A stretch of DNA of 62,971 nt, filler included, from Welwitschia mirabilis (taxonomy: Eukaryota), in NCBI GenBank assembly GCA_051453625.1. It is 6 parts of one record of this genome, joined end to end, with 100 filler letters (N's around TTAATTAATTAA, not from the genome) between each part and the next. Parts side by side here need not be neighbours in the genome. Positions count along the whole stretch, not along the records: positions 1 to 20,119 come from JBOZIK010000001.1; positions 20,220 to 24,345 come from JBOZIK010000001.1; positions 24,446 to 43,801 come from JBOZIK010000001.1; 3 more parts are not named here. One strand, 5' to 3'. The translations under genes and the position numbers were made by a program. Below the pieces are notes generated by a model. That model saw nothing but the letters and a program-made list of their open reading frames with translations, ran no database searches and was not told where the DNA came from. This document shows, one piece after another, positions 5,934 to 34,399 of this stretch. Positions within the stretch are counted from its first letter, which is position 1, and every line of letters starts with the position of its first letter.

Positions 5934-8035
5934 TGCATATAGTTTAGCTAATTCTTCTTTACATCATATTTTATTTCTTTATTAATTATTTAAATTTGCA
6001 TGTGTCACTTATTATAAATATGTATTGCAACATTACACATAATAACTCTTAATTGATTAATGCTTTTATAGATAGTTTATAATATTGAAATTCAAACTAT
6101 GTTATATTATGTCTAGGTAGACCCAATAGGATTTGTCAAACTAAAAAATTAGAATCATTTATTTAATGACTCAGATGTGACTAAAATTCATGAAATTTAA
6201 ACACATCTTTAAGAAATGGTCTCAATACCAATTATGGCATGGAATATAACTCATACAATGTTGCATTATTAATTCTCCATTCCAGAAAAAGTAGTATATT
6301 AGCACTCTAGTAGAATTTCATGTTCATATCTTGTTACTTTAAGTAAACAAATTTTACATACTTGATCCTCCTATGTAGTATCATTCCATTTATTCAATTC
6401 CACCATGAGATGAGGGAATCCTTATTTCATTCCTGAAATTAGTGTTTATGTTAATTGAAATATTTTGTTCTTTCATCTAATTTGCCTTCTCAAACACACC
6501 CATAGTAAAATAAATTTTTTTTTCACTCTCTTCTAATAATCTTCTATAGCATTTTCCTTTACCATCTTATGAGAATGGACCAGATTTATTATTTTCCTAG
6601 GTCATAGATGTTCTAGTATCTATGCAATCATTTGTTTCCATCTTAACACCATTTCCTTTCATAAGTTCTTAAAAGTGCCTATTTTAAAAATTTATACTAA
6701 TAACTCTATTGTAAGTTATAATACAAGGTACGAAACTTCTATATTATCTTAGCTTCTAGACGCAACATGTTTGCCTCCAACATATCATATGAAACTTGAG
6801 TTTAAGCAATTCCTGTAAGAATGATAAGTTTAATGGGAGAAATGTAAACTATTTGTTTGGAAGATACATTACAAACATGGTCTTAAGAGAGTAATATGAG
6901 TAACTATTATGCTATTAGGTAGAGTAAATAAGGCTTGCACCCTATAATTGATCCAAAATAAATTGGTTCTACACCGTCTATATCATGTTCCATTCTATTC
7001 TAAAGAATTCTAATTTTTAAAGTAGATATTCCTATAAAATAGATAATTTACAATCATCTTTAATAAATATTTTTTGGCATTTCATGTCCAAATGTCTTCT
7101 TTCTTGTATTTACCTTTCATTCCATAGTATGTATTATGAAATTTTTTCATAACTTGATTTTTTTTTTTGAAGCTAAGTATTCTTAATTGAAAATGTATTA
7201 AAAAAAACGTTTTTTAATATAAAATGTAAAGCCTAATAAATTTTTATTTTTTTTTTTACATTATAGATAATCTCGATAATGTCTATGTATAAAAATGATA
7301 GACAATTCAATGAATACAAGTACAATGCCCCTTAGATAGTTAGGGTGAAAAAAAGGTTGAAAATGATTTTATGGAACTTGCATCTATAGGATTATTGGCC
7401 AAAAATTAGTTTTAAATTATAATAATAGAAGAGATAAAACCTAGGAAATTTAAAATTAAGCTTCCTTCGTAAGTTTTGTTTGAAATTATAGGAGGAAAGA
7501 AAAATGAAGAATGCTTTTCTCTCAATGCACTTTCTCCTACATCTTTGATTTCCCTAGAGTTCCTTCGTTGCTTGTGACTTTGCCTTAACATGGGTCTATT
7601 TGGGTTGTTCTCCCTATGATGTCATTTCTCAAACTTTTTATACTAGCGTTATTTTTGGTTATGCTCTGGTTCTATGTTTCCTAGTCTTCTTTCAAAGAGT
7701 GCCTTCTCTCTACACAGTGTTATTCTATGCATCTTGTTGATATGCCTCTGATTCTCTGCTTATGTTATCCCCTGTAATGCGCGTTTACCTCGTTTCTCTT
7801 CATTTCTCTATGTTCTTCTGGCTTTGTCTGAGCCTCCTCTGTGATGCATTTTCTTTCTCTAAATGCCATTTCTATCCTCTTGCATCTTCGCTCTGCTTCT
7901 TATGTGATCTAATCTAATGTGCCTCTTGAATATTTGATTCCTCTCTTCCTCATGGTCTTCCATCTCTTTTTGAATGTAATTTGCTATTATGATTTACATG
8001 ATCTCCTTCTATTCTTTTGGCGCTGAGCCTCCTTT

Positions 8036-8336
8036 GCCTTATTTCTATTTGATGGTAAGCAAAAGACTAGTCTTTTTGGTCAATTCTTCATGCTATAAAC
8101 AGGTGAATGATCTGGTCATTATGTNNNNNNNNNNTCGTGCATATGCGAAAATGGTTATGTTCGATGCACTAGATGAACTTTTCAGCAAGTGTAGAATCAA
8201 TCCCAGAGACATTGATTTCTTGATCATAAACTGTAGTCTATTTAACCTCACTTCATCACTCTCTGAAATGATCATAAATCATTACAGAATGTGAAAGAAC
8301 ATCATAACCTTCAATCTAGGTAGAATGAGTAGCAGC
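8036..8336 (+). pseudogene. 3-ketoacyl-CoA synthase (KCS/FAE1 family) fragment
   Basis: YLMVSKRLVFLVNSSCYK..[N gap]..[62 protein letters not shown] matches the KCS pattern VYLVDF.CYKP / MVMFGALDELF..T..P.DI.ILIVNCSLFNPTPSLS.MI.NHY...FNLGGMGCS; in-frame stop, catalytic Cys lost. Confidence 0.9.
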
Positions 8337-8619
8337 TCTTTCACGGTGTGAAAAGTCACATGTTTGAATCATGGCAAGGTAAGAAATTCCTTTGTTCTAT
8401 TTGAAGGAGGCTCAAAAGTTTCCAAATAGGTGCTTTTCTTTTTTGCGTTTCGTTTAGTAAAAGAGAAATTAGATCAGTTCAAATGGTTGATACCATCAGC
8501 TTCTGCTAGCATTTCTTTGCCTTTCGGGTTCAGATGTTTAAGCTTGTATGTGCTTGTCTACTTACGGTAAATACTTGTTATTTCCTACTGCGATTAATTG
8601 ATTACTTCATTTATGATAG

Positions 8620-8810
8620 AACTTTAATGTCATTTACATGTTGAAAGGTCTCCAACACATTTAGAAATTACTTAATAATCCTCAAAGACAATGAAAGTTT
8701 AAGAAACGGAAAGATCACAATCCATCAATTAATCTATTGGTTGAAATGTCAAGGGAAGTTAAAGCAAAATAGGAGATGCATATCTCTCTGGATGCTATTA
8801 ATGCTAACAT
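8620..8810 (-). pseudogene. Possible leucine-rich-repeat gene fragment
   Basis: Minus-strand peptides ALTSLDISTNRL and ISKCVGDLST resemble the plant LRR consensus, but are frameshifted and short. Confidence 0.3.
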
Positions 8811-31451: not shown

Positions 31452-31648
31452 AATACTTATAACATTCCTAGAATGTGGAAACTGCAATGTCTGGCCCAAT
31501 GTTTGATGTCATATCTTACCAGAATCTCACCTAGACTTCAATTTTATGAAAGCTTATTTGTCCTCATTGAGAGTGTAAAGGTCACCTCTTCTACTTCCCC
31601 TTGCTATTAGCTTCCCTGTCCTCCGATTCTTGATGAGGAAAGCATCCA
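31452..31648 (-). pseudogene. Copia GAG-pre-integrase fragment inside the Tat LTR
   Basis: DAFLIKNRRTGKLIARGSRRGDLYTL...DSGKI*HQTLG matches the copia pattern F.IKD..TG..IA.G.R...LY.L...WH.RLG. Confidence 0.75.
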
Positions 31649-32583
31649 AAATTTATATTAAAAAAAAAGGAAAAACCTCAAATATACATGTTAAATTCTT
31701 TTCCAATTGACTAGTAAAAATGAGAGTGTTTTTAATATCTTGATGATCATTTAATGACATAGCAGTCAATGCTTTTGAAATATCTTGAGCAAAGCAGTTC
31801 CAATGCTATAAAGCATGGTGGATAAAATATCTACAAATTGGACATTGAGTATTTACGAATTTATTTCTAAAAATTTGAGGTTTGAAGCGAAACACCTATT
31901 GTAGAGTAGGCATGACAGCTGAAGAAGAACACTAAGAAATGGAAGAATATCAAAAGAAAAAAAAATTGCAGAGAAATGGCCGAGAAGGTATCACCACAAG
32001 ACAAAGAATGGCTGGCATCTGCGTTCTTAACATCTGTAGCTCGTCTCTTTCACCATTGGATCGCTTATGTCGCTTTTGTTTTTGTTTTCCTTTGGCACTC
32101 TCTAAATGCGATTTTTAGCAAATTTTGCAATTATAAGATTTATTAGCGGTCAAATAATCCTTCGGCTGGTTTTATCTTCCAGAGATAAGAAAGCACAGAA
32201 TTCAGGTGATTTGGAAATGGGTGACCTTTCAAACATCAAGAGGATTCATGAAGCATTCTCAAAGAGGCATTTGAAAATTGAAACTACTCATAAATGGACT
32301 GGATGAGAAATTTGAAGAACACCAGCACTGGGAAGATGTTATTAAAAAGAGCAATGATAATGTTTCGTACACTGCTAAGTGTTCGCAACACAGAATTGTT
32401 GAGAGATTTTTACATGGACAATTATTTTCGTTAAAAAATGAGGTGATTATGGTCTTTTCCATCTTCTTTTTCAAGCAGTTCCTTCAAAATACCTTGAAGC
32501 AAACTGCAGGCGCATTGCTCTCGGACTCTGTTTTTGAAGTTCCTTAGCCTTGCAGATCTACATTCCTACATAAATAAGACGAA

Positions 32584-32800
32584 ATGGATATTTTTCATAT
32601 TGACGTTCTAAGAGATAAATTATCAAAGAGAACATCAGTTATTGGCTTGAGATTATGGTTTCTCATAGGTGTTGATGTAGGGTTCTTTATGGTTCTATAT
32701 TGTTTATCCTATCAATATGTTTAACTTGTAAAGGAAAGTCCAAAAGAATACCAGAGTAGTATATTCATGCTTCAAAAACCAGGAATCCAGGAAAAATAGA
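32584..32800 (+). pseudogene. N-terminal fragment of an RLCK-V-type receptor-like kinase inside the Tat LTR
   Basis: MDIFHIDVLRDKLSKRTSVIGLRLWFLIGVDVGFFMVL/LFILSICLTCKGKSKR matches the LSKRTSIFGLRLWV.IGI.VG..IVL.LF.LS.C N-terminus of this family; frameshifted, no kinase domain. Confidence 0.8.
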
Positions 32801-34399
32801 GAGTCATACCTAAGGAAGGGGGCGTCTCAAGCGCACATCAAAGGGAGAACAGAAGAGAAAAATCAGGAGTAACCTTCCTCCAATTGTCAAGCAACATCGG
32901 CAGTTGGAAGACAATCAGGAGAACGGATCATCACAAGCGACGGAGGAGGTCCAGCGCATAACAATGACGAATTCAAAGAAGAGGGGGAGATAGTGAAAAA
33001 CGCTAATACAGAGAACCGCAAGAGAAGAAAGGGACGCCAAAATAGAATCGACAAGCAACAACATAGGATTATACACAGAAGCACACGCAGGGGCGGAAGG
33101 CATCAAAGAGATCAGAACAACGTCAGACGAAAGGAAAAATCAGTGTAAAGCGAGGAACGATAACAGAATAAGGTGTCAAAAAAAGAGCGAATCGCAGAAA
33201 AAACGTCAGGATTCAAGCAGCAAACATAAAAAAAAGAGCGAGGGACGCATCAAGGATTGCGTAGGGATTCAGGTCGAAGGAACAATAATGCAAAAAAGCA
33301 ACAAGACGAAACCATAGAGAAATGGCTCCATTACATTGAAACGGATCACAAGAGGGGAGAAGCGAACGTGCATTAGAAAAACACAAGAAGTGCAGAGATT
33401 AGAGAGGGAACGGTAAGCACAGAAGAAAAGGAAGAGGAGAACAGCGGAAGACATCAAGACAGATCAGTGAAAATGCAGCAGCAGCTATGCAAAAAAGGCA
33501 GTGACAGGGGAGGAGAAGAACGCCAGCCCAGAGGAACAGAGCAGACACAGCAAAGAAAGGAGATGTCGAAACAGCAGCAACGCTGCAAATAAAAACAAAT
33601 GCCAATAAGCAACAAAAACAGAGGAGAAGATGCATCAGATCAGGCTCAATTCTAGAAGCCACAACACCAGAAAAGAGGAGGACAGGTGAAGCAATAGACA
33701 TGACTATAGTAGAGGCTTGCCCCAGAAACCAAACATTTGTGACCTGTTATGAACCTGAGTTATCAACATCCCTATAAATAGGCAAAATTTTGATTAGAAT
33801 TCTCATAAAGAAGAACCATGTATTAGATTTGTCTGAATACTGTACTATTATGCTTTGTATTCTTTACAATTTTAAATCAAGTCTTATTTACTTAAAAAAA
33901 AGTATTTAGAATTGTTAATATTGCAATTTGATTATTAGCCAAAAACATTGTAGAATTTCCTCTTAAGTATTTACTTCTGCTTATGAAAATATATGCATTC
34001 TATTAATTATCGCCTTTATTCAACTAAGCGCAGCCAAATATTTTTCAAATCCAAAGCTTTTAAATAATCACATTTTAGGCATGATACGATGGATGCGAAA
34101 TTTCACACTATAAGAAACATATAGATCATAGAATCACATTAAATAAATCAGACAAAGGTACTAGGCAAAACTCAATTAACCAAAATCAATTTAACATTCC
34201 GGAAAATTGTTGCAATAGTTTTGGCGCTAAAAGGAGGGTGCTAGGTAAAACTACGATCATCCAAAATCACAAATTCGACATTGCGAAAAGTTGTCGTAAC
34301 AGTATGCCTTATAACCATTATCTTCTCTTTTAATATACATTAACTCCACTTATAATTTATAATGCACTCTAATCCCATAAGTACCAACAATCTCAACTT

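Follow-up and report, generated by a model that had tools for sequence, protein, structure and literature searches.

Fragments of host genes within the U3 region of a decayed long terminal repeat, and of a second presumed one, at a locus of Welwitschia mirabilis

Capture of gene fragments by long terminal repeat (LTR) retrotransposons has been reported mostly for the internal region of the element, with one gene per element. In maize, the LTR retroelement Bs1 contains pieces of three host genes, has no complete open reading frames and is explained by transduction (excerpt of PMC13317346), and a survey counted 425 gene-fragment LTR elements representing at least 189 captures, none of them, in the excerpted part of that survey, with more than one gene (Baucom et al. 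2009, PMC2774510). Similar surveys extend to rice and sorghum (excerpt of PMC3726574). Foreign sequence within the LTRs themselves is described for BARE-2 and Veju, where it is attributed to abnormal template switching between co-packaged RNAs (the same excerpt of PMC13317346). Bipartite and tripartite chimeric retrogenes made by long interspersed nuclear elements (LINEs) consist of copies of different transcripts joined directly, in the same orientation and with complete 5′ ends, a structure explained by one or two template jumps (excerpt of PMC2104539). Here, we analyzed a 62,971-nucleotide stretch of the Welwitschia mirabilis assembly GCA_051453625.1 (the window), in which the U3 region of a plus-strand 3′ LTR at 31311-34303 holds fragments of a START-domain gene and a receptor-like cytoplasmic kinase (RLCK) gene, and a presumed minus-strand LTR between 16752 and about 7225 holds a fragment of a 3-ketoacyl-CoA synthase (KCS) gene and a borderline armadillo (ARM)-repeat fragment, such that each LTR carries at least two host genes.

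Like Bs1, the locus has fragments of several unrelated host genes inside an LTR element. The fragments of Bs1 reportedly lie in its internal region and form an expressed hybrid open reading frame, whereas those described here lie in the U3 of an LTR, are decayed, and are known from one copy and from sequence alone. The locus shares with the maize set, as excerpted, the presence of host gene fragments within structurally defined LTR elements and differs from it in having at least two genes per LTR. In BARE-2 and Veju, the foreign sequence came from other retrotransposons or was of unknown origin, and the altered LTR gave rise to a subfamily that propagated, whereas at this locus host mRNAs would be the source and the LTR is single copy. 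In the excerpted account, LINE chimeras finish with LINE or poly(A) sequence and lie between direct repeats of 10 to 20 bp; neither feature was found at this locus, where each mRNA piece is cut at its 3′ side. A sequence-only reading of the window had proposed a "Pack-LTR" system, a name for which keyword searches of the open-access literature found no described case. Its observation is partly confirmed, its interpretation is partly supported, and the system itself is unproven. We regard the locus as a real, unusual variant of known LTR gene-fragment transduction, unusual in the U3 location, in having at least two genes per LTR, and in its tandem 5′-terminal pieces.

The plus-strand LTR, with the 3′ untranslated region (UTR) and polypurine tract (PPT) before it and the flank after it, lies inside a single gap-free block (30106-35513). 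The parts of this element are as follows, including a 5′ remnant with a primer-binding site (PBS)-like sequence.

17160-17598, plus strand: 5′ LTR remnant (last 426 bp alone) and PBS-like site, 84.8% identical to 33876-34303, U3 absent
27400-29151, plus strand: remnants of gag and aspartic protease, decayed, from a Ty3/gypsy-type family of high copy number (Asp_protease E 0.0013, below the cut-off)
30809-31310, plus strand: 3′ UTR and PPT, inverted homologue of 16753-17166
31311-34303, plus strand: 3′ LTR, TG..CA
31311-31965, plus strand: 5′ part of U3, which a few other copies also have (reads and paralogous contigs)
31976-32440, plus strand: START-domain gene fragment, start codon to codon 171, collinear with the protein P0001
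32441-32860, plus strand: RLCK fragment, comprising a putative 5′ UTR and, from the start codon at 32584 on, the N-terminal membrane segment as far as about codon 62-98
32790-33700, plus strand: purine-rich U3 block (purine 0.70-0.735), unique in the genome at 80% likeness
33765-34303, plus strand: TATA-like site at 33772 followed by R/U5, in which the LTR-end and PBS-like motif is duplicated internally at 34219

The PPT immediately precedes the TG of the LTR (AAAAAGGGGGCAAT, then TGTA at 31311), and the LTR ends with ..GTAACA at 34303, beyond which the flank begins GTATG. Self-BLAST found the last 426 bp of this LTR (33876-34303) again at 17160-17585 (84.8% over 429, E 2e-120). This copy likewise ends with ..GTAACA and continues into GTTTTGGCAC, a PBS-like TGG site, and TTTTGGCACTAAAA occupies the junction of LTR end and PBS-like site at 17585-17598. 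Homology of the 5′ LTR with the 3′ LTR begins abruptly at about 17162/33878. Within U5 (17502-17598 and 34190-34245), there are also internal duplicates of the "LTR end plus PBS-like" motif (..TTGCAATAGTTTTGGCGCTAAAAGG..), which give the impression that U5 had taken in copies of the LTR-PBS junction.

Two host genes are represented in the plus LTR. P0001 (257 amino acids, Pfam START 5.3e-9) was the one of 297 candidates to be recovered in a word-seeded search (E 1.9e-12, 97% identity over 35 residues), and its residues 1-171 match 31976-32440 collinearly (tblastn E 1.3e-30), in segments displaced by −2, +5 and −48 nt relative to where a cDNA would place them. The fragment has three frame changes and a deletion of ~53 nt and contains no intron-sized gap; at 465 nt where 513 would be expected, it leaves no room for an intron. 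The "unidentified exon-like pieces" noted earlier are thus real, and they are not separate but one collinear 5′ part of a START-domain gene. For the neighboring fragment, a 48-residue open piece (32578-32721) had a single match among 1.84 billion proteins (phmmer), P0003, at E 1.9e-4 and 66% identity, with query residues 10-44 aligned to residues 12-48, the N-terminus of that protein. Residues 13-98 of P0003 matched 32608-32859 within the window (tblastn E 1.1e-9). By its sequence, P0003 has a membrane segment at the N-terminus and, after it, the beginning of a kinase domain; Pfam gave nothing on it. The fragment is identified as the N-terminus of an RLCK-type kinase, presumably of family RLCK-V.

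The two pieces abut head to tail in the sense of the LTR, each running from a start codon to an internal 3′ truncation, and the START piece is followed at once by ~140 nt of CT-rich sequence that leads up to the kinase start codon at 32584. The leaders of both pieces are possible leaders only. A six-frame Pfam scan of the plus LTR, with stops read as X, returned no family at E≤0.1 other than a chance Imm30 match (E 0.073), so that Pfam alone would miss both pieces. A supposed Copia pre-integrase fragment on the minus strand at 31407-31703 was rejected: it matches no Pfam family, and its best match to the Copia element in the window has an E value of 0.96. It is more likely to be plain LTR sequence of the family, because paralogous contigs share a left edge with the contig of the locus itself.

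The lineage of the plus element, read earlier as Tat-like, can be described only in outline. What defines the Tat lineage of Ty3/gypsy is an additional RNase H, of archaeal type, together with reverse transcriptase-RNase H-integrase phylogeny (excerpt of Neumann et al. 2019, PMC6317226). In the three plus-strand frames of 17586-31313, Pfam found no reverse transcriptase, RNase H or integrase at E≤0.01. Atlas neighbors of 27400-29151 are RVP_2/Asp_protease_2 clusters (score 0.92), and Atlas and Pfam together point to a retropepsin only, without lineage resolution.

The second element lies on the minus strand, head to head with the first, and encloses a nested insertion.

16753-17166, minus strand: 3′ UTR and PPT of a second, related element, cut off at 17160-17166
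15177-16752, minus strand: proximal part of the presumed 3′ LTR, adjoining the PPT, with the ARM fragment
15583-15849, plus strand: ARM-repeat fragment, antisense to the presumed LTR
9359-15171, plus strand: complete Ty1/copia element, nested, not LTR cargo (RVT_2 2.4e-34, SH3_retrovirus 1.1e-28, gag_pre-integrs 1.1e-4)
8136-8339, plus strand: KCS fragment, 68 codons, internal to the gene, starting at an N gap, antisense to the presumed LTR
7225-9358, minus strand: presumed distal part of the LTR, its extent taken from layout

The kinship of the two elements is seen at their 3′ ends. As had been reported, the PPT string occurs exactly at 31296-31309 (plus) and 16755-16768 (minus), the 2 exact matches in the window; allowing ≤2 mismatches adds one more, with 2 mismatches, at 46318, against ~1.0 expected at that tolerance. 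The claimed homology of the 3′ UTRs was also borne out by two inverted matches, 16750-16979 against 31314-31074 (61% over 246 nt, E 1.2e-5) and 17034-17166 against 30940-30809 (67% over 133 nt, E 2.2e-10), so that by sequence comparison these regions are weakly but significantly alike, at 61 to 67% identity. Both LTRs have, furthermore, a purine-rich, GC-richer block on the sense strand, then a TATA-like site (33772; ~7490 on the minus strand) and an AT-rich end. In the minus LTR the purine-rich block lies at ~7510-8080. Against a mean purine fraction of 0.50 (standard deviation, 0.068), the two blocks are the most extreme skews in the window (0.70 to 0.735 purine at 32750-33800; 0.29 to 0.33 on the plus strand at 7451-8150). 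The shared layout claimed earlier stands for the purine block, TATA-like site and end region. Together, these features support reading the two regions as what is left of 3′ LTRs from elements that are related yet distinct. Each region also has pieces of several unrelated host genes ahead of its purine-rich block, TATA-like site and U5, in agreement with the earlier reading.

The minus LTR had been read as one unit from 7225 to 16753, and its PPT and 3′ UTR are indeed present, but the unit is interrupted by the complete Copia element, which that reading missed. The Copia has LTRs of 299 to 301 bp that are 89% alike, a target-site duplication (TSD), TGATG, on both sides, a PBS-like site, TGGTATTAGAGC, that is tRNA-Met-like, and a frameshifted pol. 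Its removal leaves 16752-15177 plus 9358-7225, ~3.7 kb, as the presumed LTR, which would start with TA, not TG, and has no partner copy within the window. The KCS identity of 8136-8339 is certain by sequence match (Pfam FAE1_CUT1_RppA, E 1.5e-20, 74.2 bits, profile positions 80-147 of 290), as the sequence-only reading had it. The ARM call is borderline: it depends on a Pfam Arm match exactly at the cut-off (E 4.4e-4, 20.6 bits), and in a database search 1 of 2,551 candidates passed, an ARM/HEAT protein at E 4.9e-4 and 28% identity, which in a tblastn search back to the window gave nothing at E≤1. Two other proposed fragments failed. A DNA polymerase eta piece at 8702-8911 (minus), polymerase-like by eye, matched no Pfam family at E≤10 and none of 51 candidates at E≤0.05, and a leucine-rich repeat had no Pfam match in six frames. 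The described mixture of orientations applies to the minus LTR, where KCS and ARM are antisense; in the plus LTR, START and kinase are both sense.

Copy number was assessed with reads of two individuals (X14 and X15) and contigs of two other runs (X1 and X5), mapped to 27400-35513 at 80% likeness. Summed raw-read depth was as follows.

27400-30922: X14, 109-895
30923-31193: X14, 95; X15, 97
31194-31464: X14, 24.5; X15, 22.3
31465-34174 (LTR interior): X14, 0-6.4; X15, 0-5.1
34175-34445: X14, 22; X15, 27
34446-35513 (flank): X14, 0.8-4.8; X15, 2.6-5.5

Depth is 109 to 590 over the gag and protease remnants, drops from ~314 to ~24 across the 3′ UTR and PPT (30809-31310), and is 0 to 2 over the purine-rich block. 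At the start of the LTR, 31332-31368 is covered by 6 to 19 X14 reads, falling to 0 to 4 deeper into the LTR and 0 to 1 by 31491. Reads from the interior of the plus LTR, which holds the START piece, the kinase piece and the purine block, are just as scarce as those from the flank, and other copies share the termini only. Because interior depth equals flank depth, the cargo of the plus LTR is present about once. It is single copy, with no sign of amplification in the two runs at this threshold. The most repeated mapped stretch is 30110-30650 (raw depth, ~790 to 895). There, more than 1,300 reads per run break at 30362 and ~600 at 30403, with 30362-30438 skipped by reads, and a short insertion or deletion sets the majority of genomic copies apart from the window.

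These depths bear directly on the "Pack-LTR" proposal, in which elements of a long-LTR lineage routinely take up host fragments at a particular position in U3, with shared ends enclosing different cargo that is copied to both LTRs in each cycle, amplified, and preserved as solo LTRs. Such a system would account for two related elements with the same layout and different cargo. It would also account for the first ~130 bp (6 to 19 reads) and last ~130 bp (depth, 22 to 27) of the plus LTR being common to other copies while the middle is unique, to which extent the earlier claim of conserved ends around a variable middle is upheld. Among the contig pieces listed, paralogous contigs of ~83 to 88% identity cover 31439-31965, 31439-31789 and 31447-31755, all stopping on the left where the contig of the locus itself stops; rather than copies of a Copia, they probably represent further LTRs of this family. 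One of them, of 1,474 nt, matches 31439-31965 and continues for 940 nt that are unplaced on the stretch, which is also in keeping with such a system. However, an interior depth of 0 to 6, equal to the flank and set against 100 to 900 in the internal region, shows no amplified cargo and lends no support to the copying of cargo to both LTRs in each cycle with survival as solo LTRs. The ends of the two LTRs are unlike, their first 130 bp included, which leaves "one lineage, one slot" unsupported, and ordinary divergence among subfamily LTRs would also yield conserved termini and a diverged middle at an 80% threshold. With a sample of two LTRs, we consider such a system quite unlikely.

The quality of the assembly has to be weighed as well. 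The window, taken from a draft scaffold rich in gaps, is plant DNA of high AT content and has 19 runs of N, among them five identical artificial linkers.

20120-20219, 24346-24445, 43802-43901, 58276-58375 and 61321-61420: artificial linkers, each N44-TTAATTAATTAA-N44

The scaffold appears to be a chain of contigs with the six-frame-stop spacer TTAATTAATTAA between them, in which case adjacency across linkers rests on scaffolding. Self-BLAST placed duplicated sequence of ~80% identity on both sides of three gaps, which suggests contig ends built from different repeat copies; one of these duplications, of ~530 bp at 80%, flanks a gap of 651 N inside the Copia element. With duplicated gap flanks and linkers, order and contiguity across gaps rest on scaffolding, and the span first described (7225-34301) contains many N gaps and two linkers. 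A chimeric assembly could in principle have made the mosaics or the LTR assignments, or the regions may not be LTRs, and the gaps, the linkers, the duplicated flanks, a 10-N gap at 8125-8134 that lies between the minus-LTR purine block and the KCS piece and touches the latter, and a minus LTR with neither partner nor read support are all in keeping with such an error. We nevertheless judge it very unlikely, since the plus LTR, its 3′ UTR and its flank lie in one gap-free block, contigs of two runs match the plus LTR independently, and the Copia LTR pair and TSD are concordant across the 651-N gap. Near-identical contigs (0 to 8 differences), among the pieces listed, cover 31448-31769, 31748-32267, 33073-33683 and 34260-34819. 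The X5 contig at 31748-32267 spans the left junction of the START piece, and X1 and X5 contigs at 34260-34798 and 34260-34819 (1 and 0 differences) span the junction at 34303. As contigs of two organism labels span the START-entry and LTR-end junctions, those junctions are real.

We tentatively favor an account that we hold possible rather than probable, in which the two regions are the 3′ LTRs, now decayed, of two old Ty3/gypsy-type elements that are related but distinct and lie head to head, and the host pieces were captured by template switching before integration, as a one-off accident. The LTR ends, the gene fragments with their order and orientation, and the single-copy status are observed, whereas we infer the mechanism, its timing and the extent of the minus LTR. 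In the plus LTR, reverse transcriptase copying U3 during minus-strand synthesis would have jumped into the kinase mRNA and run to its 5′ end, then switched to the mRNA of the START gene, reached its 5′ end in turn, and returned to the element RNA. The outcome would be two 5′-terminal, intron-free mRNA pieces, head to tail in the sense of the LTR. A switch during U3 copying would put the cargo into both LTRs of the new copy, and the chimeric LTR would then have integrated once, without further propagation. Later decay would have stripped the 5′ LTR of its U3 and the element of its whole pol, and the Copia would have inserted into the other LTR. What the plus LTR presents is direct joining in the same orientation, with START sequence from the ATG at 31976 to 32440, then the kinase leader and the ATG at 32584. 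Abutting sense pieces with 5′ starts fit a reverse transcriptase that runs off the 5′ end of its RNA template and goes on copying a different RNA, and they match the pattern reported for the LINE-made chimeras (PMC2104539). The second LTR-like region, with the same layout and other fragments, and the scans that found no rival carrier also speak for this account.

Alternatively, the LTRs may have been ordinary ones to which gene pieces were added later at the DNA level, through filler at repaired breaks or through nested fragment-carrying transposons whose ends have decayed. The KCS and ARM pieces, internal to their genes and antisense, show the mixed orientation expected of such additions, and their pattern would fit DNA-level filler repair or a decayed carrier better than run-off. 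The cargo is single copy and occurs in no other LTR copy in the reads; the elements are old, with LTR remnants 85% alike and nested Copia LTRs 89% alike, so that later events had ample time to occur; transposons are densely nested at the locus; and filler-DNA repair in plants is known to move gene fragments (excerpt of PMC3445842). Random filler would, however, rarely be expected to deliver START and kinase pieces that both begin at a start codon, lie in sense and abut, nor does it account readily for 171 START codons without an intron-sized gap or for mosaics at the same relative place in two independent LTRs. A carrier transposon was sought through its ends, which for a Pack-MULE would be long terminal inverted repeats with a 9- to 10-bp TSD and for a Helitron a 3′ hairpin and CTRR, with insertion between A and T. 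Pack-MULEs and Helitrons assemble multi-gene fragment mosaics in mixed orientation, as seen here, but their defining ends were not found, and the START piece looks spliced or at least intron-free. The longest inverted pairs, of 31 to 32 nt at 74 to 75% complementarity (one in 31000-34400 and one in 15172-17200), bound none of the blocks, and a scan for Helitron ends (3′ hairpin and CTRR) gave 0 sites on both strands of three regions, although this simple perfect-stem scan misses decayed ends. The check proposed earlier, for terminal inverted repeats, TSDs or Helitron termini bounding the blocks, therefore found none in simple scans that decayed ends could escape. We rate later addition at the DNA level as doubtful, though worth keeping in mind.

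Several observations weigh against the template-switch account that we favor. The KCS and ARM fragments come from within their genes and run antisense to the LTR, an arrangement that run-off on sense mRNAs does not explain, so that the mosaic of the minus LTR does not fit a single mechanism. "Intron-free" may mean only that the parent START and kinase genes have a long first exon, which would look alike. Alignment to paralogs reaches 31965, leaving ~10 nt for a START leader. With the U3 of the 5′ LTR gone, a capture before integration has no partner for comparison, and the remnant at 17160-17585 and the 3′ LTR stand in different contig blocks, with six N gaps and two artificial linkers between them. 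The contig evidence draws on 16 pieces out of 49,582 and on 24 loose ends out of 8,076. The far end of the minus LTR at 7225 is set by layout alone, and the region crosses the 10-N gap beside KCS. Finally, the LTR bodies have no detectable likeness (best local alignment, 35.4 bits, versus 25.4 to 34.0 in 20 block shuffles), nor do the first 130 bp, so that layout alone speaks for a fixed slot in one lineage.

The surroundings of the locus were mapped by Pfam scans of read-through translations, with stops read as X, and by self-BLAST. The right flank of the plus LTR (34304-37287) has no Pfam match, and by eye the minus strand of 34304-35400, adjoining the LTR, shows a LINE-type (non-LTR) reverse transcriptase motif (..FADDVALVA..), with no Pfam match at E≤0.1. 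Simple nesting of the plus element within the minus element was considered and rejected, as the right flank shows this LINE-type motif and no remainder of a related element. Further features are listed below.

1-4700, minus strand: LINE remnants (zf-RVT 3.1e-10)
37286-38245, minus strand: germin-like protein gene, apparently intact, with an open frame of 319 codons (Cupin_1 1.5e-36)
~38800-44000, minus strand: Ty3/gypsy element with gag, reverse transcriptase, RNase H, integrase and SH3-like domain, frameshifted

The germin-like gene is the sole intact host gene among the scanned parts, and a (CT)n run at 43732-43801 flanks the Ty3/gypsy element. Between the two LTR regions, 18508-19822 and 25634-27362 are direct copies (80 to 84%) of a 1.3- to 1.7-kb unit, 7.1 kb apart, the second of which holds an internal tandem duplication spanning a gap of 100 N. 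A Transposase_32 remnant lies between these copies at 21892-22417 (minus; E 4.8e-7, below the cut-off). When the edges of the two copies were examined as LTRs of a nested element, no clean TG..CA and no clean TSD were found.

At present, the value of the finding is that of one decayed locus in a draft scaffold and a lead for a genome-wide survey. The U3 location matters as a part of the element that is copied to both ends and persists as a solo LTR, and 5′-terminal, sense, abutting pieces are a readable footprint of the route of capture. If the pattern holds in other copies, it would give a rule, that fragments begin at transcription starts, and a new route by which leaders and first exons of genes are scattered and exposed to silencing. 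We think it unlikely, but conceivable, that there is a lineage whose U3 repeatedly takes up the 5′ ends of host mRNAs by run-off template switching, each member placing different leaders or first exons upstream of its own promoter. Such a lineage would be a retrotransposon counterpart of Pack-MULEs, and promoter-proximal gene pieces and sources of gene-matching small interfering RNAs would be spread as solo LTRs.

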